Shown: piece after piece, positions 350 to 20,000 of the stretch
Layout of the letters: the number at the start of each line of letters is the position of its first letter
Position numbering within the stretch: position 1 is the stretch's first letter
From: an uncultured virus (IMG/VR IMGVR_UViG_3300044996_000468)
Taxonomy: Duplodnaviria; Heunggongvirae; Uroviricota; Caudoviricetes
DNA length: 20,000 nt
Virus record (IMG/VR): IMGVR_UViG_3300044996_000468
Span: 58,627 to 78,626 of that record
Reading direction: 5' to 3' (one strand)
The notes under the pieces: generated by a model
Told to the model about the DNA's origin: nothing
What the model saw: only the letters and a program-made list of their open reading frames with translations
Database searches by the model: none
Position numbers and translations under genes: made by a program

Positions 350-385
350 GTTGCGATCAACTTTGATCGTGACGTGGATAGAAAT
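350..385 (+). repeat. Solitary CRISPR repeat of the same family as the 10262-13735 array
   Basis: GTTGCGATC-AACTTT-GATCGTGAC-GTGGATAGAAAT has the same 9+6+9+12 layout as the array repeats. The stem is fully paired when two G-U pairs are allowed. Confidence 0.85.
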
Positions 386-3020: not shown

Positions 3021-3330
3021 CCTTCTTCTACGAGAATGCTGTGTACATCGCATACTACGACACGAAGACAAAGAAGAAGAGGACCTTGCGCTTCATTCCT
3101 TCACCGGAAGCGCGGAAGAACATTCATACCTTCGACACGACCGGGAAGTTCTCTCCAGGACGCTACCGGCTGGACGCACCCAAGGGTTCGGACACGCTGG
3201 CCAGCATTCGTGAGCGGAGTCGACGTCGTCCTGGTCGACATCCTCCGAGCAACAAGCCGGTGATCAAGCGCGCTGTCAAGGCTACCGTCAAAGGGCGTCT
3301 GCAGTACGCCTACGCCTACTAGCCGAGACC

Positions 3331-3792
3331 GTGAAGACCGACGACGAGATCAGTCACGCGATCGCGCGAGCACACAGCGACGAAGCCGTGTTCGCTGACT
3401 ACCTGCGCGGCTTTGGTCTCGTCGTCGATACACTCTCCCGCGGTTTTCGAAAGTCGCTCGACGACATCGCGCAGTACGCCCACGACGTCGACCTGCAAGT
3501 CGCCGGCTACGCTTGCCAGTACAAGCATCGCGGCAACGCGCGGCTCGCGTACATCGTCAGGAACTACTGGGGGCCGTTCCTCGACGAGAAGCAGAAGGCC
3601 GATCGCACGCCGGTCGACTTCTACATCCTCGACTTCACCGACGCGACAGTGATCGCACCGTATGCACCGGATCTGTGGAAAGTCCAGACCAACGACGATC
3701 GATCGGACCGAGCACGCGCGAAACAGTTCTACATCGTGAACATCCGCGACTGCGTCCAGCTGCAAGCCTGGATCGACTGGCTCAGAAGCTGA
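3331..3792 (+). CDS. Hypothetical protein, possible PD-(D/E)xK nuclease fold
   Basis: 153-aa ORF with GC3-rich codons. E in an N-terminal helix and DVDL...QYK spacing resemble the PD-(D/E)xK motif; the fold assignment is tentative. Confidence 0.6.
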   Translation: MKTDDEISHAIARAHSDEAVFADYLRGFGLVVDTLSRGFRKSLDDIAQYAHDVDLQVAGYACQYKHRGNARLAYIVRNYWGPFLDEKQKADRTPVDFYILDFTDATVIAPYAPDLWKVQTNDDRSDRARAKQFYIVNIRDCVQLQAWIDWLRS

Positions 3793-3828
3793 CGTCGAGT
3801 GATCTCGCCGCGGTTCGTTCGCATCATA

Positions 3829-3925
3829 GGCTTGACTTGTCAGGTACATCTGCGAAACGTTCAGTTCCAGTAGAGAACGGCTTGACTCGTCGAAGTCGTG
3901 CGTGAGAGGTTCAGTTCGAGTAGAG
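3829..3925 (+). promoter_or_regulatory. Tandem imperfect 50-bp duplication upstream of cas3 (putative promoter/operator)
   Basis: GGCTTGACTYGTC at 3829 and 3879, and GTTCAGTTCSAGTAGAG at 3859 and 3909. The sequence between the blocks differs. Each unit contains a TTGACT -35-like hexamer. Confidence 0.5.
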
Positions 3926-3945
3926 CGCGACAATTTAGGGAGCAC

Positions 3946-6051
3946 ATGAAGAGCACGAGGCTAGGGCCTCGGTCACTCACTGCCCGTAGGGTTCGGGACG
4001 TTGAGCGACCACTGGTCGAGGACATTCTTGCGACCGCAGATCGTGGAGCCGCTCTCGCCGTAGCGTTCGGTGCGCAGGAAACTCGCGCTGTCTGTCTTTG
4101 GTCGGATATCGGCAAGGCATCCGAGTCCTGGCAGATCCAGCAACGCGGGTCGAAGTACGGCCTACGTATTAACCATGTTGGATTAGGCGTTTGGCACACC
4201 TTACGCGTTCCCGGCATCCCGTCCATGCAACGATTGGCAATCGCTGTCGCGATCGCCGGTCACCATGGTGGTCTCCCAGACGCAAGTTACCTACCTGCAC
4301 TGGCAGATGAGAGCGCACCGCTTCGAGAGGCGCTGATCGATCTTCCCGACGAGATCACTGCCCTTCCCGTAATGCGACAACGTCGGTTCGCAAACGCGAC
4401 GCATTTGTTCATGTTCACGCAGATGATCGCGTCGGCACACATCGACGCCGACTGGCAAAACGCGGCGGAATGGGAGCGAGAAGTCTGTGGTGCGCCCATC
4501 ACACGACCTTCGTATCCGAGCATCGAACAGCTCTACCGACAGTTGGAGAGCGTGTGCAGTGACACACGGCTCGATCGGAGCGATCTCCGTACTGCGTTCC
4601 GTTTGCACTATCTAAGTGCCGCTGAACGTGTTCCGGGGTTCTATTCGTTCTCAGCCCCTCTCGGTGCGTTCAACGTCGAAGCCTTGGCGCTGTACGGGCT
4701 GGCACACGCGCGACGCAACGCACGAGAAAGGGTCATCCTTGTCTGTTCGACGCAGATGATGTTCGAAGAGTGCACAGACAAGCTTCGTGCCTCTCTCGGA
4801 GACGCATTCGCAGAGCCCGCCGCGTTCGACGTCCAAAGTTGTGGGTTCAGTCCTCGTGTCGAGACCTGGGACGCTCCTGTCGTCGTTACCGCGCTTCGAG
4901 ATTTCTTAGGGCTCCTCTTTGACAATCGTCCAGCGTCTCTGCGACGTTTCCATCACCTCGCACGCGCAGTGGTCGTTGTCGTCGACGCACAACAGATCCC
5001 GTTGCCCGTGCGCACGTTGACCCGCGAAGCGTTACAAGTACTCGTTGATCATTTCCACGCTTCGGTGTCGCTCGTGTCGGCGGTCCCCTACGGAGTCGCG
5101 GAGGACGATCGACCAGAGTTGTTGGGGCCAAAGGACGCCTTCAACACGGTCTACGGAGAGATTCAGACCACATGGCCCGATCATCACGAACCGTTACCCT
5201 CCGCCGTACAGATCGCACACGAGATCGCCGAGCACGCTGAGTGTTTGACGGTTCTCCAAGATGCATCCAGATTGCGTGAGGTAGCACAAGCGATGAGGGC
5301 GTACGTCCCCGACGTCCAGGTCACTGCCGTGTCGTCTCGGATGTGTGCTGAACATCGTCGTGCGGTGATACGTAACCTTCGTGGAGGGTGTATCATCGCC
5401 GACGAAATCGGGAGTGCTCTCGCGAGGACGTTCAATACGGTCCTGTGTGAGATGACCGAACTGCCGACCATGGCCGCTGCTGCCTGTCGTGCGTTTGGTG
5501 ACGGTCAGCGGCGTGCAAACTTCAAAGTTCTTCTCTCGACGAGACGTACGGCTGGAGCTGTCGTCACGCACCTCATGTGGCGAGGTCGTTCAACACTGGC
5601 GTTTCAGGATCCCGCAACCTGGCGCGAGTACTTTCTGGACTTGCGCTCCGGGGTTCTACCAAACGATCGGCAGTGGGCCGACGCTCGTCAGGCGGACGTC
5701 GAGTGTCTTCGGTTCCGAACACTGGCCGCGGAAATGTTGCGTGTCGGCAAACGCTGCGCGGCACCTGTGAGCCTTGGGTTGGGAGAAGCCAGCCTAGTCC
5801 CGGTCGTCGTTCCTATGCCACTGCCGAGGGGTGGCTCCAGACCGGCGACCAAAGCCTTGATCGACAGGCTTCGTGCAGACGGTTCAAGTCAAGAAATTCT
5901 ACGTCGACTCATGAGCTACGTCGTGTGGATCTCCGTCGACGAGCGCACACAACTTCTTCGCGACGGTCATGCTGTCTGGGTCAGCGAGGCCGTGGTCTAT
6001 GTGATCAACGAGCTTCTGTACGATGAATTTGGGCTGAAGCCACTAGCCTAG
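3946..6051 (+). CDS. cas3: Type I-C Cas3 (HD plus SF2 helicase), predicted catalytically inactive
   Basis: Cas3 scaffold motifs DIGK, AIAGHHGGLPD, IDADW, ETWDAPVVVT, LFDNRP..LRRFHHLARAVVV and C-terminal LRRLMSY...YDEFGL. ATG 3946 follows an AGGGAG RBS. Lies upstream of cas5c. Confidence 0.9.
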   Translation: MKSTRLGPRSLTARRVRDVERPLVEDILATADRGAALAVAFGAQETRAVCLWSDIGKASESWQIQQRGSKYGLRINHVGLGVWHTLRVPGIPSMQRLAIAVAIAGHHGGLPDASYLPALADESAPLREALIDLPDEITALPVMRQRRFANATHLFMFTQMIASAHIDADWQNAAEWEREVCGAPITRPSYPSIEQLYRQLESVCSDTRLDRSDLRTAFRLHYLSAAERVPGFYSFSAPLGAFNVEALALYGLAHARRNARERVILVCSTQMMFEECTDKLRASLGDAFAEPAAFDVQSCGFSPRVETWDAPVVVTALRDFLGLLFDNRPASLRRFHHLARAVVVVVDAQQIPLPVRTLTREALQVLVDHFHASVSLVSAVPYGVAEDDRPELLGPKDAFNTVYGEIQTTWPDHHEPLPSAVQIAHEIAEHAECLTVLQDASRLREVAQAMRAYVPDVQVTAVSSRMCAEHRRAVIRNLRGGCIIADEIGSALARTFNTVLCEMTELPTMAAAACRAFGDGQRRANFKVLLSTRRTAGAVVTHLMWRGRSTLAFQDPATWREYFLDLRSGVLPNDRQWADARQADVECLRFRTLAAEMLRVGKRCAAPVSLGLGEASLVPVVVPMPLPRGGSRPATKALIDRLRADGSSQEILRRLMSYVVWISVDERTQLLRDGHAVWVSEAVVYVINELLYDEFGLKPLA

Positions 6052-6105
6052 GTGGCTGGTCTTCCGAGCAGGTTCGCAGGGAAAGTAGGCTAGGTACGCC
6101 TTAAA

Positions 6106-6118
6106 AATCAAGGACTTA
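6106..6118 (+). promoter_or_regulatory. IHF consensus site in the cas3-cas5 intergenic region
   Basis: AATCAAGGACTTA matches WATCAANNNNTTR exactly, within a locally AT-rich patch. Confidence 0.45.
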
Positions 6119-6178
6119 CGAGTTTACTCTCGACAGAACGGACGCCTCGCGCGTCGTAGACAACAACAGGGAGAGCAC

Positions 6179-6814
6179 ATGAAACGGAGCAGTGTACTTG
6201 CACTACGCGCAATGGGGCGGCGCGCGTGTTGGACGAACCATCTTTGTCGTGTCGAACGACAGACATACGACATTCCTACGCCGTCTGGCGCTGTAGGGGT
6301 GTTCGAAGCTGTCAATTGGCATCCCGGAATGCATTGGGAGCTGCACAAAATCTGGGTACTCAAGCCCATTCAGCACTTTTCACTGCGCACGAACGAGGTG
6401 AAGTGTTTCGCAGGCCGCCAGCCAATCAACATCGACAGCAATCGGACGCAGCGCAATACCGTCGGGCTCTACGACGTCGACTACATCTTCGAGGCCAGCT
6501 TCGTACTGGACGCGCGTGCGTCTCACGACGTCGCGACCAACGAAGACATCTTTCGTCGGCGCGTCAAGAACGGTGCCTGCTATCACACGCCGTATCTGGG
6601 GATGCACCCCTTTATCTGTGACGTGATGGCGCCGCCTGCCCAGTATACGCCGATTCGCCTGAGTCGGAGTTTTGGGCGAATGTTGTACGGGTTCGACTAC
6701 ACGAATAAGAAGCCGACGCCGCTCTACTTCGAAGCCTCGATGGAGAACGGTGTCGTGCAGATCCCTTCGCGTGAATACGTTCTTCAGAACCAAGGGATCA
6801 ACCATGTTCCGTGA
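6179..6814 (+). CDS. cas5c: Type I-C Cas5c (Cas5d)
   Basis: Motifs G..ACWT..RVERQTYDIPTPSGA.G.FEA..W.P, VLKPI, RTNEVK, RTQR....LYDVDY, FRRR..G.CYHTPYLG, FGRMLY.FDY and FEA.MENGV..P. Confidence 0.95.
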   Translation: MKRSSVLALRAMGRRACWTNHLCRVERQTYDIPTPSGAVGVFEAVNWHPGMHWELHKIWVLKPIQHFSLRTNEVKCFAGRQPINIDSNRTQRNTVGLYDVDYIFEASFVLDARASHDVATNEDIFRRRVKNGACYHTPYLGMHPFICDVMAPPAQYTPIRLSRSFGRMLYGFDYTNKKPTPLYFEASMENGVVQIPSREYVLQNQGINHVP

Positions 6815-8816
6815 GTTGTACGAATTCGCCCAGCGCAACCGATTAGCAGACCCCGGCTTTCAGAATCGATTCGTCCATTACGAGATCGTCCTCGACGAGA
6901 ACGGTCGATTGATCTCAGGACATCGGATCGACGCAGAAATGCGCGCCCCCATGATGCCGAACAGGGCTGGTACCATCGTCCGTCCACAAGCTTGCATCGA
7001 ATCGGTGCAGTACATCCTTGGGCACGTCCTCGCAAAGCCGGGGGAGGACCCGCACAAGAAGCAAGAGCGTGCAGTGATTCTCTTCCGGGGACACTACGCG
7101 CACGTACACCGTATGGCGGAGGAAACCGGCGATCCCTACGCTCGGGCGTTGGCCAACTTCGTACGAGACGTCGACAATGGTGTCTATGGTCCGCCTCAAC
7201 AGGCCGCCGAACGCTGTTTGGGATGGACATCTGTCGACGAACCGCTTACCGGCAGTGAGTGGTGTGTCTTCGCCGTCAAGGAACCGGATCAGCCGAAGTA
7301 CTACATCCACGATCGGCCGGCGGTCTCACAGTGGCTTCGCGCGAACCGGCCCACTGCCGACAGCGACGTTGTTATCACATGCGCTGTGACAGGTCGCCAA
7401 GACAAACTCTGTATGACGTGGAACAAGGTCAAAGGCATTCCTGGTACGCAAGGGTCAACTCTCGTTTCGTACAACCATGCCCCGTGGACTTCCTACGGCT
7501 TCGACCAAGGGGAAAACTCCCATACGGGACGGGACACTGCAGAGGCCATTGTCGAAGGGCTCAACTATCTTCTTCGACCGGTGGAAGTCCCTTACACGCG
7601 GCGGAACTCGAAGACCGAGGAGATCGAGACGCGTGTGCGGATCAAACCGTACGGCGGCGTCTACCCCTTTAGCTTCGGTGCGCCGCAAAAAGGAGCCACA
7701 GTATTCGTTTGTTGGACGGCGGAGAAGGACGTCGAGCTGACGGTTCGTGGCGGTCTCACAGCTCTGTTCTCTGGCGGCGGCGAGGTCGAGACGTTACTCG
7801 ATATCGAACACGCGAGTGAGTCGGCCGTCGAAAAGCTACTTCGGACCGAGACGAACGATCCGCAGATCATCCACGATCTGCTCGCAGTGCATCGCACAGG
7901 TCGTGCGATGCCACAGTTCAACGAGGGCGCTTTTCACGCGTTGTTGCTCTCGGATAATCAACGCGTCGTGCCGCGCAGCACGCTGATCGGTACGATCGGT
8001 GAGCTGCGCGCCAAGATTCAAAAGTACGTCGACGACATGCGGCTGCCGACGGTCAACCGTGTTCCGCCCCTAACCAAGATCTTTGAAGCGCTTCGCGCAC
8101 GTGATCGAGAGCAGTTCACAGCAAGGACCACCGACAACATGCTGCGCTGCGTACTCGAAGGCGCCCCCGTGCCAGCTGAACTCGCAGCCGCCGCGCTCAA
8201 GCGATGCAACACCTATCCTTCCAATAAGGATGCGAGGAAACGGTGGAAGCGCCTGCTTCCGATTCGGATCAGCATCCTGAAACTCGATCTCGTCAGGAAA
8301 GGACTTGAACCACACGTGCAGAAAAATCCGTTCGACAACCTCGAAGAGACACACATCGCGAACGTACTCGGTTACGTCATGGCCGAGTGTAATCGCGTCC
8401 AACGCTGGGCCCTTGGCCCAGTGCAGCGTTCCAGCCTGTCACGCACGGACATCGTCCAGGCGCCACACAACGTACTCGCGGCGATTCTGACGAAGTACGA
8501 GAAGCACACCTCCAGTGCCAAGATCAGGAAACAATCCGGTCCGTCCAAGGAACGAATGGGACGTCTGATGACGCGACTCGGCGACGAGATGCTACCGGTA
8601 CGACTCGGTGCCGAAGAGCAGACTCGATTCTGGATTGGCTACTACACCTACGAGAGGTGGATGAAGGAGCACTTGGCGGCGAAGGCGGCGGCGAAGGCAG
8701 CTGCTCAGGCCGCTCAGGCCGCTCAGGCCGCTCAGGCTGCTCAGGCCGCTCAGGCCGACGAGGACACGGACACCGATGAAGACGTAGACGTAGACACCGA
8801 CGACATGTCCCAGTAA
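6804..8816 (+). CDS. cas8c: Type I-C large subunit Cas8c (Csd1) with an Ala/Gln repeat and acidic C-terminal tail
   Basis: Start set at ATG 6804 (MFRELYEFA), which overlaps the cas5c end. Motifs CAVTG, KVKGIPG...LVSYN...SYGFDQGEN...LNYLL, and a Cas11-like C-terminus LGYVMA...EEQTRFWIGYY. Confidence 0.92.
   Translation: MFRELYEFAQRNRLADPGFQNRFVHYEIVLDENGRLISGHRIDAEMRAPMMPNRAGTIVRPQACIESVQYILGHVLAKPGEDPHKKQERAVILFRGHYAHVHRMAEETGDPYARALANFVRDVDNGVYGPPQQAAERCLGWTSVDEPLTGSEWCVFAVKEPDQPKYYIHDRPAVSQWLRANRPTADSDVVITCAVTGRQDKLCMTWNKVKGIPGTQGSTLVSYNHAPWTSYGFDQGENSHTGRDTAEAIVEGLNYLLRPVEVPYTRRNSKTEEIETRVRIKPYGGVYPFSFGAPQKGATVFVCWTAEKDVELTVRGGLTALFSGGGEVETLLDIEHASESAVEKLLRTETNDPQIIHDLLAVHRTGRAMPQFNEGAFHALLLSDNQRVVPRSTLIGTIGELRAKIQKYVDDMRLPTVNRVPPLTKIFEALRARDREQFTARTTDNMLRCVLEGAPVPAELAAAALKRCNTYPSNKDARKRWKRLLPIRISILKLDLVRKGLEPHVQKNPFDNLEETHIANVLGYVMAECNRVQRWALGPVQRSSLSRTDIVQAPHNVLAAILTKYEKHTSSAKIRKQSGPSKERMGRLMTRLGDEMLPVRLGAEEQTRFWIGYYTYERWMKEHLAAKAAAKAAAQAAQAAQAAQAAQAAQADEDTDTDEDVDVDTDDMSQ
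8316..8816 (+). CDS. cas11: Putative internally translated Cas11c
   Basis: In-frame GTG at 8316 follows AGGAAAGGA (8295-8303) and lies just before the LG(R/Y)xxA helix, where I-C Cas11 normally starts. Confidence 0.5.
   Translation: MQKNPFDNLEETHIANVLGYVMAECNRVQRWALGPVQRSSLSRTDIVQAPHNVLAAILTKYEKHTSSAKIRKQSGPSKERMGRLMTRLGDEMLPVRLGAEEQTRFWIGYYTYERWMKEHLAAKAAAKAAAQAAQAAQAAQAAQAAQADEDTDTDEDVDVDTDDMSQ
8703..8756 (+). repeat. 6 x 9-bp tandem repeat (GCTCAGGCY) encoding (AQA)n in the cas8c tail
   Basis: Read directly from the sequence. Confidence 0.95.
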
Positions 8817-8900
8817 CTCACAAACGTCGACGACGATGTCGTCGTCGTAGATACAAATACGCACGCAACACAGAGCAGTAGAGAGAAGGGAAAGAGACCA

Positions 8901-10082
<1,182 letters not shown>

Positions 10083-10261
10083 CAACGAGCGCCTTGGTGC
10101 GAGGCGAGTTACCAGAACCGCTCGCATGATCTAACACCGCGCAAGTCCTGACGTAACACGGTTCTCTGATAACCGAATAGCAGCACAAAAGAAGCGTTTA
10201 TGGGCGTCGCTCGCTAGGCATCACCTAACGAACAGCGCCAGTTGTCTTTTCAGAAAGTGTT
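10083..10261 (+). promoter_or_regulatory. Putative CRISPR leader
   Basis: About 180 bp, non-coding and lower in GC, between the cas7 stop and the first repeat. The GAAAC 3' end of the repeats implies + strand transcription. Confidence 0.7.
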
Positions 10262-13200
10262 GTCGTGATCGAGATCGATCACGGCGTGGGTAGAAACTTG
10301 AGGTTGGGCCTCATCCACAGGCACCGCGGTCGGGGGTCGTGATCGAGATCGATCACGGCGTGGGTAGAAACAACGATCGCTACTTCGATGGCCGAACCGT
10401 CGGCGTGTTTCCTCGCGCTTGATACGTGATCGCGTCGCGATCGACAACGATCACGACGCGGATAGAAACACGCGCAACCTCCGCGTGATGCCGTCCGGCT
10501 CCCTGGGTCGCGATCGACAACGATCACGACGCGGATAGAAACGCGGCGCCCTGGACGACCTTCACCGTACGGATGACGCGGGTCGCGATCGACAACGATC
10601 ACGACCGTGGATAGAAACCTCGCAGACGCCGAGTACACATACGCGTCGTGCGCGGTCGCGATCAATCAATCTAAATCGCGACGTGGATAGAAACACCGCG
10701 GGTGGTAGCGACGGCGACGGTCCAGCACCGGTCGCGATCGATTCAGATCGCGGCGCGGATAGAAACACGCTGGACGACGGGCCTACGACGACAAGGGCAA
10801 TCATGGGTAGAAACCAGATTTCAACCACCTTGCGTGCGACAACCTGCGTCGGCAGTCGTGATCGATCAGGATCGCGACGTGGATAGAAACAACTGCAGGG
10901 AGTTGCCGTCGGGCAATTTGGTCGATCAGGATCGCGATGTGGGTAGAAACACCACGCGCGCCGCCAGCCAGCGCTCGATTTCCGCGCGGTCGTGATCGAT
11001 CAGGATCGCGACGTGGGTAGAAACTGTTCGGCGACCGCATGTGCGACGGCCTCGGGTGGTAGTCGTGATCGATCAGGATCGCGACGTGGGTAGAAACGTC
11101 GACGACGTGGCCCGGCGCGTGATCCCCGTCGACGTCGCGATCGACCAAGATTGCGACGTGGGGTCGATCACCAGCCCCGTAATCAACCGCGATCACGGTG
11201 TGGATAGAAACGTGAGCGGCGAAAAGCCGCTACTGAAGGAAGGCGTCGTGGGTCGCGCCGCGGATAAAAACAGTTCGAGTGGTGTCGTTGGTGGTGTAGC
11301 GTGCTGGGTGTCGTCGTGATCGATCGAGATCACGCCGTGGATAGAAACCTGTGCGGTCGCGCTCGCCCTACGCGAGCCCCAAGGTTGCGCAGGTACGTGT
11401 AAGTCGTGATTCGATCAGGATCGCGACGTGGGTAGAAATTACGTCGACGCAGAGACCCGCAAGCTGGTGCGCAGCGCCGTCGTGATCGATCGCGATCATG
11501 ACTCCGCTCGCGCCGAGGTTAAACCAGTACGCGACCCAGATCTCGTTGCCAACGACCGTCGTGAATCGATCAGGATCGCGACGTGGATAAAAACGCCGTG
11601 TACGGCGTCTCGCCGATCCACTCCCACGTCGTCGTGATCGATCGCGATCGCAGACGAGGATAGAAACAGCGACGGGTAGTTGATCGAACCGACGGCGCCG
11701 CTCAGTCGCGATCGATCGCGGCGCGGCGCGGCGTGGATAGAAACAAGCGGGTCCGGCTCGCGCTGCACGTGTGGATGGAGGTCGTGATCGGCGGCGGTCA
11801 CGGCACGGATAGAAACTCGGCCTCGCTCCCCAGCGACGACTGGTACGCCACCTGTCGCGATCGACAACGATCACGACGCGGATAGAAACACCGGCGACGT
11901 GAAGATGCCGACGCTGAAGAAGCTCCGTCGCGATCGACAACGATCACGACGCGGATAGAAACTGGATGATCTCGTGGCCTTCGTCGGGACGCCACGGTGG
12001 TCGCGATCGACAACGATCACGGCGTGGGTAGAAACGAAAGAAGGGGAGAAGAGTCAGGAAAGCATCCTAACCGTCGCGATCGACAACGATCACGACGCGG
12101 ATAGAAACACACGTACGAGCGCGGTCATGTCCTGCACGAATCGCGATCGACAACGATCACGACGCGGATAGAAACGGCACGGGAGAGCACTTTGAATGGG
12201 AGGGCAAGATCAGTCGCGATCGACGCGCGGGCTCATCAGGTCGTGATCGATCAGGATCGCGATGTGGATAGAAACGGTCGCCGTACCAAGACATCACAGG
12301 CGAGGTCGCGATCGATCTGGATTGCAGCGCGGATAGAAACAGGTTGTACGCCCACCCGGGCGGAATACATTGCTGTAGTCGCGATCGATCGCGACGTGGA
12401 TAGAAACCCGGTCAAACTAGGTCCACCGCACGCCGGGCCGTTGGTCGTGATCGATCTGGATCGCGGCGCGGATAGAAACAAATCCTGAACTGGCGTCACC
12501 TCATTATAGAATACGGCGCGATCGATCTAGATCGCGGCGAGGATAGAAACAGCATGGCTACTTGAGTAGTCGATCTACGCTTATCTCGCGGCGTGGATAA
12601 AAAACGCGATCACCGTTTGGCGAATCACGGAGCACTGCTCATCGTGATCGACTCAGATCACGGCGTGGGTAGAAACAAGGAAATCGTCGCGAGCGATGAA
12701 ACCTCGGGATGTCGTGATCGACTTAGGAATCGTGACGTGGGCAGAAACATCGGCGTGATCGGGACGATCATTGCGAAACTCGTGGCTCTGCATCGCCGGT
12801 GGCGGCGTGTACTTGTCACGATCGATCACAGCGTGGATAGAAACATCTGTACGTACTCGTCAGCGCGAAGCTCCGCGCGGTCGCGATCGACAACGATCAC
12901 GACGCGGATAGAAACGATGCGAGGATATAGCGGAGCCCCGGCACCGAGCGTGTCGTGATCGATCGCGATCACGTGATTGATCAGGATCGCGGCGTGGGTA
13001 GAAACGTCGCGAAGGGCCTCGCGTTCCAGGTGCGTAAGCACGTCGTGATCGATCGCGATCACGGCGAGGATAGAAACAGCGACGGCAAGCTCTACAAGAT
13101 CAGGATCGACGTGGTCGTGATCGATCGCGATCACGGCGAGGATAGAAACCGCTGGACCGAGCGCCGTCGATTTTCAACCGCCCACACGTCGTGATCGACG

Positions 13201-13735
13201 CAGATCACGGCGCGGATAAAAACGGCGCCGTCGCGAACGGAGTCGACTTCTACGGCGAAGGTCGTGATCGTCGTCGTCGTGTTGGATCGCGACGCGGATA
13301 AAAACAAGAACATCCTGTACGGCGAGATCCTGTCCGCAACGTGGATATCATCGGTGGCAGTGTCGTCGTCGAGGAGTTGTCGTGGATCGCGGTGTGGATA
13401 GAAACGCGTCGCGTGGATAGAAACACGAGATCGATCAGGCAGGCGATCTGGATCGTGGCGCGGATAAACGAAAAAAGTGCGTCTTGCCGCGACCGAATGG
13501 GCGGTGACGTCGCGATCGATCTGAATCGCGACGCGGATAGAAACGTCGCGCAGTTCCAACCGGTTGCGCTGAGCGCGATCGCGATCTTGATCAATCGCGA
13601 CGCGATCGTGGATAGAAACCAGAAGTTGAACCGTACTTCGTCGAGATACGTCGCGGCGTGGATAGAAACGCGGCAGTCATCCCGAGGCCGGTCACGACGA
13701 TCGCGATCGATCGAGATCGCGACGTGGATAGAAAC
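10262..13735 (+). CRISPR. Type I-C-like CRISPR array, about 50 highly variable repeat units; consensus GTCGYGATC-N6-GATCRCGRC-GYGGRTAGAAAC (36 nt)
   Basis: Manual count gives about 47 handle-bearing units plus about 3 without a handle. Spacers are mostly 34-40 nt with outliers. Adjacent to cas7c, with GTCG start and GAAAC end as in I-C repeats. Confidence 0.95.
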
Positions 13736-13791
13736 CTCACCAGCTGCCTTCGTGATGCGGGAGTCGTATCAAGATCTATCGGTTGCAATTA

Positions 13792-14127
13792 TCAACGACG
13801 AATGAGGCGCGGGTCTTCGACGAAACTCTCGACGGCGCGGGGGACGAAGCGAACACGACCAAACGCGTAGCCAAGACCAAGCAGCGCGAGCGCACCCGCG
13901 GCGAGCAGTAAGACCGTCGGCGGCTCGAAGAGACCGACCGGCGAGCACTGGAAGTTCTTGAGTGCCGGATCGAACTTGCAGCGGACGGTAACGTTGTCTG
14001 GGATCACAGGCATCACGATCTTTGGGTCGGTGATGACGTTGGGCGTCGCGGCCGGCGTCGTCGCGTCCTGTCCCAGACCGAAGATGTTCGGACGATCGGT
14101 CGTAGATTGAAATTGCACCGCGAGCAT
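13792..14127 (-). CDS. Small protein with C-terminal transmembrane helix and basic tail
   Basis: MLAV...FGLGQ N-terminus, a Cys pair, and hydrophobic VLLLAAGALALLGLGYAFG followed by Arg residues. Confidence 0.7.
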   Translation of the reverse strand: MLAVQFQSTTDRPNIFGLGQDATTPAATPNVITDPKIVMPVIPDNVTVRCKFDPALKNFQCSPVGLFEPPTVLLLAAGALALLGLGYAFGRVRFVPRAVESFVEDPRLIRR

Positions 14128-14211
14128 GCCGGCATTGTACGCGATCGCGCCCGCGATCGATGAACAGTGTAGGGACTACCCTGGGGATTGAAACGGCTCT
14201 AGCCTTGTTGG

Positions 14212-14577
14212 ATGTCAGGTAGCAGGCCGATCTTCGTGTTTGGCAGCAACCTCGCCGGTCGCCATGGGACTGGTGCCGCGCTCGAAGCGCGACAAAAACA
14301 CGGGGCGGTGTATGGCTGCGGCGAAGGACTTTCTGGTTACTCGTACGGGATTCCAACGAAGGATCGGGACCTTAAGTCGCGGACGCTCGACGAGATTCGT
14401 GCTTCTGTCGAGACGTTCCTGGCGTTCGCGCGTGATACGCCCGAAACCACCTACGAGGTCACGCGCGTGGGCTGCGGCCTCGCCGGCTATAAGGACCACC
14501 AGATCGGGCCCATGTTCGCCGAGGCACCGGCCAACTGCATCCTGCCGCTCAACTGGGAGCAGTACAGGCGCACTTGA
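14212..14577 (+). CDS. Conserved phage protein (IFVFGSN...GRHG.GAA family, A1S_2505-like)
   Basis: IFVFGSNLAGRHGTGAA, YG.GEG..G.SYGIPTK, VTRVGCGLAGY and MF...P.NC.LP..W. Confidence 0.8.
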   Translation: MSGSRPIFVFGSNLAGRHGTGAALEARQKHGAVYGCGEGLSGYSYGIPTKDRDLKSRTLDEIRASVETFLAFARDTPETTYEVTRVGCGLAGYKDHQIGPMFAEAPANCILPLNWEQYRRT

Positions 14578-16227: not shown

Positions 16228-16839
16228 ATGCTCGCCGTCACCTACTCGGGTTCTGGATTTGGTCAAGCCGGCTGCCCTGCCGGTCAGCACTCGTTCACGT
16301 TCCCGTGGGGCGTGAACACGTGTGTTGCCGACGACGCCGCACCGCCCGATACGAGCGCGATCTCTGCGGATTCGACGCCAACGTGTGCGGCGGGTCAGCA
16401 TCTCTTCACGTTCCCGTGGGGCGTGAGCACGTGCGTGTCGGACGACGCACCAGCCATCAACGTCAACGCAACGTCGCCCGATCAGACACCACAGTGTCCG
16501 GCGGGTCAGCACCTTTTCACGTTCCCGTGGGGCGTGAGCACGTGCGTGTCGGACGACGCACCAGCCATCAACGTCAACGCAACGTCGCCCGATCAGACAC
16601 CACAGTGTCCGGCGGGTCAGCACCTTTTCACGTTACCGTCGATCGGGCTGCTGCCTCCGGTGATGCAGTGCCAGCCGGATGTCGTACCCTCATCGAGGAA
16701 GTTCTTCGACGTGAAGAACCCGATCATGTGGGCGACGTTCGCGGGTGGTGCGGCCGTCGTCGGCCTCGGTATCTACGCGTTCAGATCACCCAAGCCGACC
16801 ACGGTTGCAGGTCGCCGTCGTCGCCCACGTCGCCGCTGA
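16228..16839 (+). CDS. Membrane-anchored protein with about 3.3 copies of a 37-aa Cys-containing repeat
   Basis: CPAGQHLFTFPWGVSTCVSDD... repeats, then a C-terminal TM segment (IMWATFAGGAAVVGLGIYAF) and an Arg-rich tail. Confidence 0.8.
   Translation: MLAVTYSGSGFGQAGCPAGQHSFTFPWGVNTCVADDAAPPDTSAISADSTPTCAAGQHLFTFPWGVSTCVSDDAPAINVNATSPDQTPQCPAGQHLFTFPWGVSTCVSDDAPAINVNATSPDQTPQCPAGQHLFTLPSIGLLPPVMQCQPDVVPSSRKFFDVKNPIMWATFAGGAAVVGLGIYAFRSPKPTTVAGRRRRPRRR
16273..16632 (+). repeat. 111-bp intragenic tandem repeat
   Basis: GCGGGTCAGCA recurs at 16390, 16501 and 16612. Units 2 and 3 are nearly identical. Confidence 0.9.
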
Positions 16840-16856
16840 CGTCGTATACTGCGTAG

Positions 16857-17129
16857 ATGCGCGACGACGATACGGGGTTGAAGGAAACGCTCCAGCGGAT
16901 CGCGAAGAGCGGCGTGTTCCCGGGGCAGTACTACCGTCACAACGAGACTCGTGTGATCTACAGGGTGCTGGTAGTCAGCGTGAACGAAGCGGATCTTGAA
17001 CCGTACGTGCAGTATCAACAGTTCGACGATCCCTACGCGATGTCGTGGAGCCGACATCTCGACGTCTTCTGCGGGCAGGTGTTGCGCGGCGAGGTCTTGT
17101 CTCCGCGTTTCTCATTGGTCGAGCTGTGA
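16857..17129 (+). CDS. DUF1653-like protein
   Basis: PGQYYRH...YRVL......E..V.YQ......WSR....F......PRF pattern. Confidence 0.75.
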   Translation: MRDDDTGLKETLQRIAKSGVFPGQYYRHNETRVIYRVLVVSVNEADLEPYVQYQQFDDPYAMSWSRHLDVFCGQVLRGEVLSPRFSLVEL

Positions 17130-17410
17130 CCGACACGCGACGCTTCCCGATCATTCGAGGCCAAAGTCGTTTGGGGCGGGCCATCTGTGACACCTGGCCG
17201 CGAACAGTCCCGTGGTCGTTCGTCGAACGGTTTCGTGCTCAAGCCGAGCTGAACCACGACCAGACGCTGGAGCGACTCGCCGAGCGCGGCGGCTTGGCTC
17301 CCGACGAGCTATGGTGCGCGGCCAACAGCAAGGCGCTCTTCCCGATGCCGGACGAGAAGGCCTGCGGTGACTGGCTCGTTGCCGAGATGAAGAAGCTCGG
17401 CGAGAGTTAA
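17126..17410 (+). CDS. Conserved phage hypothetical protein
   Basis: GTG start overlaps the previous TGA (GTGA). Motif VPW......QA..NH.QTLERLAERGGL...EL. Confidence 0.7.
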   Translation: MTDTRRFPIIRGQSRLGRAICDTWPRTVPWSFVERFRAQAELNHDQTLERLAERGGLAPDELWCAANSKALFPMPDEKACGDWLVAEMKKLGES

Positions 17411-18171
17411 GCTGCGATCGCGGCGGCGTCGGCGGTGATGCGCGCCAGGTCGAAACCGTTGGGTGCGTGGCGTGTCTGTGTGACCCAGAGATCATCGACG
17501 ACGAACCACGCTTCGTCGATGTAGAGGTCTTCCCATGCGTACGAGATCTTGCGCGGGCTTACCCACGGCATCGCGAACCATTGACCGCGTTGGTGGCCCG
17601 TCAGGATGAACGCGTGGCCACCGTACGAACCGATCTTGTCGTCGGGCGTACGACTTCCGGGCGGCCCGACGTCCCACAAGTCGCGTTGAGCACGGATCGC
17701 GTTCGGAAGATCAGCACCGACGATCACCGAACCGAAGATGTGCAGCGCTGCACGCATTTCGACTGGGTCCTTGTGGTTCACGCGTCCGAACGACGAGATC
17801 TTGTACTTGCCGTTGCGAAGGCCGTAGTACTTCATCTGCACGAGCGCGTTGATGATCGTGTCACCGCGATCGGTCGCGGCCGTGCCGTCCCAACCGATGC
17901 CATCGGCGTACGCCAACAAGATGTCGCCATCAGTCAGCTCGCACTTCACGCCGAGGAGCGCGCAACGCTGTTGGATGATGTGGCCGTAACAGGTTCGCGT
18001 GCAACATCCGACGTCGCGGTTGCCGAGCCAGCTGTACGTGTTGACGTCGCCGGTCCAGTCATCGAACGGCGGTGGCGCTGTATAGGTAGGGCCTTCAGCG
18101 TAGCGCGAGAACCACAACGTTCGACGATCGTGGGGTGAGACTTGTGAACGACCTGCTTTGCCGTAGCTCAT
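17407..18171 (-). CDS. Papain-like cysteine peptidase
   Basis: LGNRDVGCCT (putative catalytic Cys), DRGDTI..AL and GGHAFILTG (putative catalytic His). Start set at ATG 18171 by the ATGA overlap with the upstream stop. Confidence 0.7.
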   Translation of the reverse strand: MSYGKAGRSQVSPHDRRTLWFSRYAEGPTYTAPPPFDDWTGDVNTYSWLGNRDVGCCTRTCYGHIIQQRCALLGVKCELTDGDILLAYADGIGWDGTAATDRGDTIINALVQMKYYGLRNGKYKISSFGRVNHKDPVEMRAALHIFGSVIVGADLPNAIRAQRDLWDVGPPGSRTPDDKIGSYGGHAFILTGHQRGQWFAMPWVSPRKISYAWEDLYIDEAWFVVDDLWVTQTRHAPNGFDLARITADAAAIAA

Positions 18172-19028
18172 CGTGTGGTTGGCCATTGGTGAGGGTGATT
18201 TTCGCCGTCGAGCCACGCCCATCGAGGCTGATCGCCGTCGATGACGGTCGGGTGCGTCGAGAGCACGCACGCCTTCTCGAACGGGTAGTACATCGGCGTG
18301 CACTGCATGAGTGCGAGACTCGCGCGGAGGCTCAGCTCGCAGATCTCTGGGTACAGGTCTTCATTGAGACCTTGAACCAACCGAAGAACATCGATGACGG
18401 CGGCGTGACGCAACAACGTGTGGTCGAACTGACCAGATGCGAGCCCCGTGCGTAGCGGCAGATCTTCGTCTTCGCCGGCACGACGAACGGCGAGAGACAG
18501 GCCTTCCCCAAAGTGCGCCGCGTCGATGATTTCGTGCAGTACGCTGACCGACATCTGACGATCCCACGTACGACGAAAGCGCCAGATGATCTCGCCGAGG
18601 TTCTGTCGGCGGTAACCTTCATCGTTGAAGAGGTTACGGTAGACGATCGCGGGCGACGGCAGCCACGTCACTCGTGGATACGCGAGGTAGCGCTCGTCTT
18701 CACCACGATGACTTACGGCTGCGCGGTACATGCAACCGATCGCCGCGAGCGCAAGCGCTTCATCGCTTGGACCAGTTCGAAAGAGAACACCGGTCTCCAG
18801 CTGGTCCGCGTTCGCTCTGATCGTATCGATTTCGGTGTGCGACAGCTTCTCGACGCGCTTGCGTCGACGGTAGCCGGGCAGTTCGTCGCGCCAGAGCATC
18901 GCGATGTCCCGACGGCCGATCTCGTCGTACGCGTCGGCGAGGATGTGCCGTGCGTCGTCGTCGCCCATCCAGACCTGTTCGGTGAGGGCACGGATCTGTG
19001 GTGCCGTTGCCATCCCGAACGCGAGCAT
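18168..19028 (-). CDS. Protein with a TIGR02996-like N-terminal motif and a DUF6745-like C-terminal region
   Basis: DDDARHILADAYDEIG; WLPSP; YYPFEKACVLSTHP...W.DG. Confidence 0.6.
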   Translation of the reverse strand: MLAFGMATAPQIRALTEQVWMGDDDARHILADAYDEIGRRDIAMLWRDELPGYRRRKRVEKLSHTEIDTIRANADQLETGVLFRTGPSDEALALAAIGCMYRAAVSHRGEDERYLAYPRVTWLPSPAIVYRNLFNDEGYRRQNLGEIIWRFRRTWDRQMSVSVLHEIIDAAHFGEGLSLAVRRAGEDEDLPLRTGLASGQFDHTLLRHAAVIDVLRLVQGLNEDLYPEICELSLRASLALMQCTPMYYPFEKACVLSTHPTVIDGDQPRWAWLDGENHPHQWPTTR

Positions 19029-19032
19029 AGAC

Positions 19033-19398
19033 CTACCGCCTCTTGGGGAGCTTGATGCTGCGGCCGATGAAGACGCCGGCCGCGATGCCGCCGAGGCCCA
19101 TGCTGATGCCCCAGAACACCGGCGACGTGAGGAGTTTCTTCAGCTTCGACGGCTGCGCCTGTGCCGACAGGAACGGCCGCTGGACGTCCTGAAGGCACGA
19201 GACGTCACCCGACGCCGTCGCGGCGGTTACAAGCTGCTGTTGGATCATCGCCTGATCGGCAAGATCGGGAAACGACTTCAGGATGTCGCTGATCTGGTTG
19301 TCGATCAGCTTGCTCTTCTCAGGCGTGACGCGCTGACACGACGCCATCACGCTGTTGCTGATGTTCGTCAGCTGCTCCTGCGTGATCGCGCCAAACAT
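19033..19398 (-). CDS. Small protein with C-terminal TM helix and basic tail
   Basis: A Cys pair, then PVFWGISMGLGGIAAGVFIG followed by RSIKLPKRR. Confidence 0.7.
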   Translation of the reverse strand: MFGAITQEQLTNISNSVMASCQRVTPEKSKLIDNQISDILKSFPDLADQAMIQQQLVTAATASGDVSCLQDVQRPFLSAQAQPSKLKKLLTSPVFWGISMGLGGIAAGVFIGRSIKLPKRR

Positions 19399-19468
19399 CA
19401 GTAGTCGCCTTGTGCTGTACGGAACGTCGCGTTGCCGGCCACCTCACGACGACGAAATTGGAATCTGA

Positions 19469-19999
19469 TCATGAGAGCGCCCCTCCTGCAAACGGTCTTA
19501 GATTCGTCCACGATTTTCGAAGACGGATGCGGCTCACCATGACTGCGCTGACATTCAAACGTTTCGCGACCGAAGCCGCCGTTTCGCCGTGTTCCATTCG
19601 ACCGAGGGCTTCATTGGCAAGATCTTCGGTCAGTTTACACGTTCGTCGATTGCGGCCTTGTGCATCACGCGACGCCCATACGCAGTTACCCGGTTCGTAG
19701 TTGCCGTTGTTGTTTCTGCGTTCGATCGTCATCCCGTATGGACGCTCGCCCATGTCGGTTAGGAACGATTCAAAACTGTTACGCCAACGATCACAGATGC
19801 CGATCCCACGTCCGCCGTAGTCCTTCCAGTTTGGATTTTTGGAGTTGGTGCAACGTTGAATGATCGAACACCACGTTTTGTGCGTTGGCGATCCAGATCG
19901 ACCATGCGTGGTCAGACGATCCGTGTTCGTTTCAGGCTGCAAACAACCACACGAGTTGGTGCGAGCGCCAAGATCTTGACCGACTCGTATACAAGTCGT
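19469..19999 (-). CDS. Phage HNH-type (homing) endonuclease with C-terminal HTH, 5' truncated by the window edge
   Basis: SCGC, THG, W..IIQRC, YGGRGI..C.RW..FE.FL.DMGERP..TIER.NNNGNYEPGNC.W. The frame stays open to the window end. Confidence 0.88.
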   Translation of the reverse strand, partial: TTCIRVGQDLGARTNSCGCLQPETNTDRLTTHGRSGSPTHKTWCSIIQRCTNSKNPNWKDYGGRGIGICDRWRNSFESFLTDMGERPYGMTIERRNNNGNYEPGNCVWASRDAQGRNRRTCKLTEDLANEALGRMEHGETAASVAKRLNVSAVMVSRIRLRKSWTNLRPFAGGALS

Positions 20000-20000
20000 C

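Follow-up and report, generated by a model that had tools for sequence, protein, structure and literature searches.

A full-length Cas3 homologue with eroded helicase motifs in a phage-borne type I-C CRISPR locus

Introduction

Why does a phage carry a full-length Cas3 in which the residues of the motor have been replaced? This question is raised by a stretch of 20,000 nucleotides (hereafter the window), the final 20 kb of the 78,626-b uncultured virus record IMGVR_UViG_3300044996_000468. On its + strand, positions 3946–6051 encode a 701-aa, full-length homologue of type I-C Cas3 with eroded superfamily 2 (SF2) helicase motifs and two changed ligands in the HD nuclease domain, below called the Cas3-like protein. 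Its gene is the first one of a phage-borne cas3-cas5c-cas8c-cas7c operon. A preliminary description of the DNA had taken the product for a pseudo-enzyme, dead in both active sites and kept as a scaffold. According to our analysis there is about an even chance (probability roughly 0.5) that the Cas3-like protein is a pseudo-helicase which has been retained as a subunit associated with Cascade, in a system that binds its targets without degrading them and resembles CRISPR interference (CRISPRi).

The Cas3-like protein and its helicase motifs

The reading frame is open from 3898 to 6051 and is translated here from the ATG at 3946. The other five frames over 3946–6051 hold 15–23 stops, and at the stop frequency of the window a 701-codon open frame has a chance of about 1e-7. 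A 701-aa member exists in the database (P0202). The PADLOC profile for Cas3c, PDLC01765, matches with E 2.5e-60 and aligns residues 27–713 of the open reading frame (ORF) with profile positions 13–599 of 612, which identifies the product as a Cas3c homologue by sequence. Comparison with the solved I-C Cas3 chains 8zns_A and 8g9u_P by phmmer gave a best E of 7.6e-15. Among Pfam families the protein matches a part of Cas3_HD alone and no helicase family.

The fold points in the same direction as the homology. The AlphaFold2 (AF2) model, built on a 91-sequence alignment, has a predicted local distance difference test score (pLDDT) of 89.2 and a predicted TM score (pTM) of 0.92. In a Foldseek search of this model the I-C Cas3 8zns is the best match with a query TM score (TMq) of 0.79, 8g9u_P has TMq 0.63 and the Cas3 of T. 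fusca is next; structural rows of the ESM Atlas have TM 0.80–0.84. The fold with HD, RecA1, RecA2 and C-terminal domain (CTD) is kept. The signatures AGHHGGLPD, IDADW, ETWDAPVVVT and LLYDEFGL are kept, so that the retained GHHGGL, DAD, WDAP and YD..GL motifs of the preliminary description, as well as its 701-aa frame, are indeed present in the translation and alignment.

The catalytic motifs of the helicase are a different matter. For the motif table, 132 full-length proteins (at least 600 aa) among the 149 non-self matches listed were aligned together with the Cas3-like protein (133 in total), and 129 of these 132, lying outside the clade of the Cas3-like protein, make up the active comparison set. 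Motifs were placed with phmmer against 8zns_A/8g9u_P and with MAFFT alignments containing active homologues. Walker A (4657–4677, +) reads PLGAFNV as compared to PTGGGKT. Its Lys is found in 129/129 active relatives and its Thr in 128/129 (the remaining one has Ser), and the Cas3-like protein has N243 and V244 at these positions. Walker B (4981–4992, +) reads VDAQ as compared to DEAQ, with V346 and D347 in place of an Asp and a Glu which are both present in all 129 active proteins. In motif III (5077–5085, +), SAV stands for (T/S)AT, and V380 occupies the position of a Thr found in 128/129. Motif VI (5476–5499, +) reads AAACRAFG as compared to QAAGRCNR: the first Arg is kept and the Gln, Gly, Asn and second Arg are gone, A511 and G518 replacing the Gln and the second Arg that each occur in 128/129 active relatives. 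Motif V is likewise eroded.

The motif strings and coordinates reported earlier are exact on the translation, and in the alignment with active I-C Cas3 the substituted strings fall on the catalytic motifs. The Cas3-like protein does not have the SF2 catalytic motifs of Cas3. With the residues for ATP binding and hydrolysis the ATPase activity has probably been lost, and therefore the Cas3-like protein should not be able to unwind and processively degrade DNA. By homology and fold the protein is a Cas3c; judged from the catalytic motifs in its sequence, it falls outside the enzymes.

A clade of eroded relatives and its constraint pattern

Is this a single damaged gene or a lineage? A HMMER search of 1.84 billion representatives gave 3275 Cas3-type matches. 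Three metagenomic proteins among them are intermediate between the Cas3-like protein and ordinary Cas3: P0051 (694 aa, 39% identity to the Cas3-like protein, E 2.4e-120), P0052 (705 aa, 36%, E 1.3e-92) and P0053 (660 aa, 31%, E 4.6e-43). A word-index search returned the Cas3-like protein itself and ordinary Cas3 at no more than 29% identity, and nothing else. The Cas3-like protein and P0051–P0053 form one clade, with a Shimodaira–Hasegawa-like approximate likelihood ratio test (SH-aLRT) value of 100 in a 57-row tree and support of 100/100 in a 19-row tree. All four members are full length, and their pairwise identity is 30–49% (mean 0.365).

Erosion of the helicase is common to the whole clade. 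Walker A reads PLGAFNV in the Cas3-like protein and PSSIVDA, PASVDRN and PHGASKI in the three others, and Walker B reads VD in the Cas3-like protein and ED, DD and DE in the others. The Walker A Thr, the motif VI Gln and a canonical motif III are missing from all four; for the Thr, the absence is seen in 3/4 in the 133-protein motif table and in 4/4 in two other alignment checks. The Pfam families DEAD, ResIII, Helicase_C and Cas3-like_C_2 match none of the four clade members, and both active controls match all of these families.

The order of events can be approached from the HD domain. P0052 and P0053 keep 9/9 scored HD positions, and the replacements H26D and H53S are common to the Cas3-like protein and P0051, the latter being without H106 too. 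The simplest order would be helicase erosion in the common ancestor followed by a change of the HD site in one sub-branch. The best 19-row tree pairs the Cas3-like protein with P0051, weakly (60/27), and the alternative pairing of P0051 with P0052 is not rejected by the approximately unbiased test (p-AU 0.44). Pairing of the Cas3-like protein with P0052 was rejected (p-AU 0.002).

The loci of P0051–P0053 were not found in related-locus scans of viral, metagenome and genome collections. These scans returned the same phage and ordinary Cas3 with intact motifs (7/7 other loci checked, one of them partial). Two phage contigs, L005 and L006, carry an I-C-like Cas3 with all motifs intact; therefore, inactivation of Cas3 is not general for phage I-C systems.

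Constraint in the clade was analysed at two levels. Among 86 positions that are at least 90% conserved in active Cas3c the Cas3-like protein keeps 44, distributed as 14/18 in HD, 19/40 in RecA1, 8/24 in RecA2 and 3/4 in the CTD. Furthermore, the four-member clade was compared with 300 random quartets of active Cas3 having equal mean identity, with domain limits that are approximate. The number of invariant positions in HD is 28 in the clade as compared to 29.2 ± 5.1 in active quartets. In RecA1 it is 37 versus 54.2 ± 5.1, in RecA2 13 versus 31.3 ± 4.6 and in the CTD 22 versus 9.7 ± 2.8. No active quartet (0/300) has a RecA2 share as low or a CTD share as high as the clade. Some residues are invariant in the clade and unlike the active consensus, namely V318R, Q319D and K334R. 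The CTD (5581–6051, +, approximately residues 546–701) contains a clade-specific insert at about residues 598–613, seen in the MAFFT alignment with active homologues; pLDDT is below 50 at residues 602–613. Measured on these alignments, constraint in the clade has moved off RecA2 onto the C-terminal domain. The clade, the constraint shift, the shared insert and the open frame together indicate a long retention during which constraint was redistributed, as opposed to uniform decay. The Cas3-like protein is not a lone decaying copy.

These results bear directly on the idea that the locus is a decaying relic, i.e. a captured I-C system that has lost adaptation and Cas3 activity and is drifting to loss. 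The terminal branch of the Cas3-like protein is the longest in the clade (1.08–1.35 as compared to a median of 0.66–0.67), as would be expected of a relic. Nevertheless, all four cas frames are intact, including the 701-codon one with its very low chance expectation, the AF2 model is confident, and the clade has kept full length and its own invariant residues at 30–49% identity, with constraint redistributed and not uniformly lost. We consider a relic quite improbable; observations on the locus and the array which speak for it are given below.

The HD nuclease domain

The HD domain lies at 3946–4560 (+, approximately residues 1–205, the boundary being approximate) and scores 45.7 bits against NCBIfam cas3_HD, the cut-off of which is 43.45. 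Seven of the nine scored HD positions are kept (D54, K57, H77, H106, H107, D167 and D169). The two others are H26D, in the sequence VEDI (codon 4021–4023), and H53S (codon 4102–4104); the S53-D54 codons occupy 4102–4107 and the motif reads WSDIGK. The set of HD metal ligands is accordingly incomplete. The Asp and Ser replacements could in principle still bind metal, and nuclease activity in the Cas3-like protein is probably weakened or lost.

As the fold is kept and the ATPase presumably lost, the Cas3-like protein could do no more than dock, hold on to the displaced strand and possibly nick it. This leads to the possibility of an ATP-independent nickase that has given up processive degradation, retained the HD nuclease and cuts the displaced strand once, H26D and H53S representing a remodelled metal site. 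The complete HD sites of P0052 and P0053 next to eroded helicase motifs are in favour of it. The two replacements in the Cas3-like protein are potential metal ligands, and the same Asp/Ser pair has been kept in P0051 at 39% identity. HD constraint is undiminished in the clade, and in N. lactamica nicking of the non-target strand by the I-C Cas3 needs no ATP (bioRxiv 10.1101/2023.08.05.552134). Other observations speak against a nickase. Alanine mutants of the HD dyad abolish the nuclease activity of Cas3. The dyad His of HD motif II is present in 127/129 active relatives (2 gaps) and the motif I His in 123/129 (6 gaps). P0051 has lost H106 in addition, a sign that the site is being lost step by step in this sub-branch. 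Moreover, the HD domain is the Cas8-docking surface in I-C, and its conservation need not mean catalysis. A nickase is in our opinion rather unlikely, and docking without cutting is the most likely outcome, given that two HD ligands are changed besides the helicase motifs in this sequence.

The dead scaffold proposed in the preliminary description is thus supported in its helicase half, by the motif loss in a four-member clade, the lack of Pfam helicase matches and the shifted constraint. In the nuclease half the substitutions in WSDIGK and VEDI are real, and a dead nuclease is only suggested by them, since the changes affect two of nine HD positions and the complete set is present in two members of the clade.

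The locus in the phage genome

A near-identical record, G001, has 221,422 b and a CheckV completeness of 100%. It begins and ends within cas8c, and the window spans this junction at 99.96–99.99% identity; five bases at the junction (window 7516–7520) are missing from G001. The split cas8c of G001 in protein databases is due to the record ends falling inside the gene. Because the window bridges both ends, the phage genome must be circular or circularly permuted, with a length of about 221 kb.

The gene order on the + strand is cas3-like, cas5c, cas8c, cas7c and CRISPR array. The product of cas5c (6179–6814, +), of the pre-crRNA endonuclease family (crRNA, CRISPR RNA), scores 112.4 bits with TIGR01876 (cut-off 85) and matches the Cas5 chain 8g9t_N with E 1.2e-29. 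At the position of the "catalytic Tyr" solved or named Cas5c proteins have L, H or F and the present one has N, which makes this position uninformative. The cas8c gene (6804–8816, +) starts from the ATG at 6804 with an 11-nt overlap with the end of cas5c. It matches Pfam Cas_Csd1 with E 1.2e-58, and its NCBIfam score of 158.2 bits is under the cut-off of 218.65. For cas7c (8901–10082, +) the Pfam Cas_Cas7 match has E 2.5e-53, and the NCBIfam Csd2 score of 176.7 bits is just under the cut-off of 182.25. The three type I-C effector genes cas5c, cas8c and cas7c are recognised by Pfam, NCBIfam and PADLOC. The sub-threshold NCBIfam scores of Cas8c and Cas7 would suit a relic. Word-index searches gave 2 matches for Cas5c and 3 for Cas8c, too few for partner Cascades or a deep Cas8c alignment.

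The adaptation module is missing. In the 221,422-b record no match to Cas1 (PF01867), Cas4 (PF01930) or Cas2 (PF09827) was found, and the same searches were positive in 7, 8 and 6 of 14 control genomes, respectively. The record has no second cas3 either, the gene at 3946–6051 being the sole Cas3 match. A genome-wide family scan was run on 54 of 62 non-overlapping ORFs of at least 300 aa; of the remaining ones, five cross locus boundaries and three are at the cas locus (the Cas3-like ORF and two ORFs that overlap cas7/cas8c). No further Cas family was detected among these 54 large ORFs. The absence of cas1, cas2 and cas4 would again be compatible with a relic.

Because the phage has its own Cascade genes and a 46-repeat array and no other cas3, cas1, cas2 or cas4, a role of the Cas3-like protein within the phage's own system is favoured over a free-standing decoy. 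A decoy would be a dominant-negative anti-CRISPR protein which docks on R-loops of host I-C Cascade on phage DNA and blocks recruitment of host Cas3, as the preliminary description also considered. The protein is phage-encoded, has the full fold and is catalytically eroded, and in the N. lactamica preprint docking of I-C Cas3 is described as conformational, with conserved hydrophobic contacts (bioRxiv 10.1101/2023.08.05.552134). These features would suit a decoy. Several other observations do not. The gene heads its own Cascade operon with an array and is not in an anti-defence cluster. Identity to any active Cas3 among the matches listed is at most 31%. In the Cas3-like protein, P0051 and P0052 there is a shortened loop following motif III, where the F437 anchor of N. 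lactamica Cas3 is located; two active Cas3 in the same alignment have an equally short one. We find an anti-CRISPR role very improbable.

At least half of the words sampled from the locus occur in each of 11 lake-water DNA runs, which belong to separately listed studies and were released in 2018 and 2025. In four lake-water runs compared over 3900–13800, the covering contigs show no listed base differences. Such an unchanged locus argues against drift to loss. None of the 13 runs listed as containing the locus is an RNA run.

The CRISPR array and solitary repeat-like units

The array (10262–13735, +) has 46 repeat 3' ends of the type G-Y-G-G-R-T-A-G-A-A-A-C and spacers of mostly 35–41 nt. A canonical 36-nt hairpin unit is found in 27/46 repeats, with 19 distinct sequences among the 27; these repeats have the hairpin and the ...GAAAC ending expected of an array adjacent to I-C genes. 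In the canonical repeats 93.6% of the stem cells are paired, hardly any variation is seen in the ten final bases, and the loop is freely variable. Covariation in the stem is not above that in shuffled alignments (228/500 and 152/500 shuffles reach the observed values). The other 19 units are degenerate on the stem side, and spacing is irregular, in accordance with a relic. The array has equal length in both phage records, which together with the lack of base differences in the four runs compared gives no sign of spacer turnover. It is unusually long and heterogeneous for a phage. The repeat stems hold GATC and CGATCG palindromes, and the phage encodes an adenine methyltransferase of the D12 class (Dam-type; L023:948–1976).

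No target of a spacer was found in the scans run. Specifically, for 41 of the 45 inter-repeat stretches (at least 20 nt), matches to the 221-kb phage genome beyond the array did not exceed 19 nt. The whole array, searched against 50,697 GenBank phage records, gave only one 34-nt match of 88% (E 0.3). The one spacer scanned against IMG/VR, as a 28-nt stretch, found only the array itself. A relic could be expected to give this result as well.

Units resembling the repeat are also found outside the array. The sequence G[AG]TAGAAA[CT] occurs there five times in the 221-kb genome, always on the + strand and 0 times on the − strand. In the window the solitary unit lies at 350–385 (+), consists of a 10-bp hairpin followed by GTGGATAGAAAT, and is located 42 nt (386–427) upstream of the ATG of gene 428–961. 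The four others, all +, are at L016:15770–15805, L018:11651–11686, L018:15817–15852 and L022:5124–5159 of G001. Each unit has a hairpin of −7.0 to −12.7 kcal/mol closing 0–2 nt before the handle, with stem sequences that differ; the same hairpin criterion is satisfied by 9.6% of 3000 random 25-mers. The 40 nt downstream of each unit have no genome match longer than 14 nt. At least one of the units, that of L022, also serves as a Shine-Dalgarno-like AAGGA 9 nt before an ATG. By their sequence the solitary units look like Cas5c sites, guide-like RNAs or regulators. The conserved hairpin and handle, together with the five dispersed units, suggest that recognition of the Cas5c type is still in use.

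Discussion

How might an inactive Cas3 serve the phage? In the N. lactamica I-C system Cas3 binds full R-loops only. Its HD domain contacts the Cas8 wedge and its helicase domain the N-terminal domain of Cas8, and it traps the non-target-strand bulge and nicks it without ATP; processive degradation is the only step that requires ATP (bioRxiv 10.1101/2023.08.05.552134). When an I-F Cas3 was engineered to be nuclease-dead, it still accumulated in vivo at the loci targeted (bioRxiv 10.1101/2020.09.29.318501). For huge phages, effector-less or dCas-type systems have been described and target repression proposed (PMC7162821).

By analogy with these systems the following sequence of events can be envisaged. 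Cas5c would cut the array transcript at the repeat hairpins, and Cas5c, Cas8c and Cas7 would assemble a Cascade on each crRNA, which then would make R-loops on matching DNA. The dead Cas3 would dock on Cas8c at full R-loops in the manner of active I-C Cas3 and stay there. The target would be held and blocked, i.e. a roadblock for transcription or replication, and not shredded. As a clamp the docked Cas3 may stabilise and enlarge the Cascade roadblock, and it may also keep an active I-C Cas3 of the host off the phage's own Cascade. All of these steps, with docking, locking of the R-loop and silencing among them, are inferred. A complex prediction with residues 1–560 of the Cas3-like protein and residues 2–430 of Cas8c gave a score of 0.00; it was made without controls and has no bearing either way.

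Several points weigh against a binding-only system with a retained Cas3. Cascade alone suffices for laboratory CRISPRi, and the need for a retained Cas3 is unexplained. Binding of the Cas3-like protein to its Cascade is a prediction. The locus is identical across the contigs compared, which gives no population-level measure of selection (no ratio of nonsynonymous to synonymous polymorphism, pN/pS). The degenerate units and irregular spacing may point to decay of the array. In the scans described above, silencing is left without an identified substrate. Finally, the HD positions kept in the Cas3-like protein, and in full in two clade members, allow for a nuclease role.

A wider reading can be offered tentatively, with less confidence than the subunit role itself. 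The four Cas3 pseudo-helicases may represent a distinct and old lineage in which the motor was traded for a new, CTD-centred function, that of an obligatory R-loop-dependent clamp or adaptor turning I-C Cascade into a programmable DNA binder, for silencing or recruiting, in large phages. The helicase would have been lost first and the HD site second, and the solitary units would belong to the same circuit as Cas5c-processed guides or regulatory sites. If this is true, the loss of helicase and then of HD shows how, in nature, a type I system that shreds DNA can become nuclease-free.

Other features of the locus and the phage

The locus is flanked by phage families, including a PAPS-reductase-like gene (PAPS, 3'-phosphoadenosine-5'-phosphosulfate), an HNH endonuclease and several PHROGs of unknown function. 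Elsewhere the 221-kb genome encodes PolA, ribonucleotide reductase, ThyX, primase-polymerases, DNA methyltransferases and an integrase. Promoter and terminator scans over 3200–14300 were at or below chance level, and Rfam has no match within the window.

Directly upstream of the cas3-like gene lies an ORF of 153 aa (3331–3792, +). It has no Pfam, PHROG or phage tblastn match, and the related-locus search finds only itself. Its nearest named ESM Atlas clusters are PD-(D/E)XK nucleases, with scores of 0.93 and 0.91, which are often due to chance; the single-sequence AF2 model (pLDDT 43.5) is too poor to judge this lead. If the assignment is real, a nuclease beside a dead Cas3 would matter.

The Cascade proteins have unusual tails. 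The C-terminus of Cas8c (8650–8816) contains an (AAQ)n run and, after it, a tail rich in Asp, Glu and Thr. Cas7 is extended at its N-terminus by about 60 aa (8901–9100) with (Asn-Gly) repeats and a Gly/Lys/Arg-rich stretch, and it also has an acidic C-terminal tail (10000–10082). Such tails are not present in three aligned Cas8c homologues. At 9651–9657 of cas7, deletions of 2+1+1 bases were seen in one contig each of runs X9 and X11 (depth 3.4/10.8 and 6.3/12.9); these contigs were placed at a likeness threshold of 85%, and a related organism or an alignment effect is possible.

The sequence GGGGATTGAAAC, an ending typical of canonical I-C repeats, occurs at 14183–14194. Its distance from the final repeat of the array is 459 nt, and the ATG of ORF 14212–14577 follows it after 17 nt. 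It may be due to chance or belong to a ribosome-binding region. The ORF at 16228–16839 (+) contains three tandem 111-nt copies (16273–16639) encoding a repeated 37-aa Cys-containing module (CPAGQHLFTFPWGV...). The repeat region is the area of greatest difference between the two phage records; over 16390–20000 the window and G001 differ by 19 mismatches and 7 gaps in 3616 alignment columns.

The domains of uracil-DNA glycosylase (UDG), LAGLIDADG, 3'-5' exonuclease and family A DNA polymerase are combined in one ORF of 1251 aa in G001 (L023:5080–8835, −), which probably represents a polymerase with an inserted homing-endonuclease or intein-like element. HNH and LAGLIDADG genes occur at several other places in the phage, one of them being at 19469–19942 in the window.

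Comparison with known systems

In the literature no paper was found by full text combining "Cas3" and "pseudoenzyme". The papers listed on inactive or dead Cas3, judged by titles and the beginnings of abstracts, deal with engineered mutants or are unrelated, and no conserved natural Cas3 pseudo-enzyme appears among them. Known nuclease-free CRISPR systems on mobile elements (type IV, CRISPR-associated transposons (CAST) and some huge-phage loci) have either lost cas3 or exchanged it. If confirmed, a full-length Cas3 that stayed under selection after the death of its motor would be a different solution, and one would have to assume that Cas3 has a structural role at the R-loop for which it is worth retaining. 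It bears on the conversion of type I systems to binding-only devices and on the use by phages of CRISPR arrays that cannot be updated. For tool design, type I CRISPRi or recruitment platforms could profit from a natural "dCas3" by which Cascade is locked on DNA.

The closest known relative is canonical I-C Cas3 (N. lactamica, 8zns/8g9u), which the Cas3-like protein resembles in length class, domain order, best sequence and fold match, and operon position before cas5c-cas8c-cas7c. It differs from the canonical protein by eroded Walker A and B and motifs III, V and VI, two replaced HD ligands and the CTD insert, and its identity to active Cas3c is 21–31%. The I-C variant of huge phages is likewise phage-borne, has processing of the Cas5d type and no Cas1/Cas2, and has been proposed to act without conventional interference; by its description (Al-Shayeb et al. 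2020, PMC7162821) it differs in having "a helicase protein instead of Cas3", and there is a second CasPhi system. Our locus is the opposite case, a true Cas3 homologue without a working helicase. Type IV-A with DinG and the Cas3-less I-F3/I-B CAST share with it carriage on a mobile element and the lack of an adaptation module, and they too are presumed to bind targets that they do not degrade; the abstract of PMC11519345 speaks of nuclease-independent interference for type IV-A. In these systems cas3 was lost or replaced, whereas the phage locus keeps a Cas3 that is full-length, conserved and, as its motifs suggest, inactivated. Engineered type I CRISPRi with dCas3 or Δcas3 is similar in that Cascade binds without degradation, and dead Cas3 is still recruited to targets in vivo (bioRxiv 10.1101/2020.09.29.318501). 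The laboratory dCas3 mutants carry one or two changed residues, whereas the inactivation suggested for the phage Cas3 is natural, multi-motif, ancient and clade-wide.

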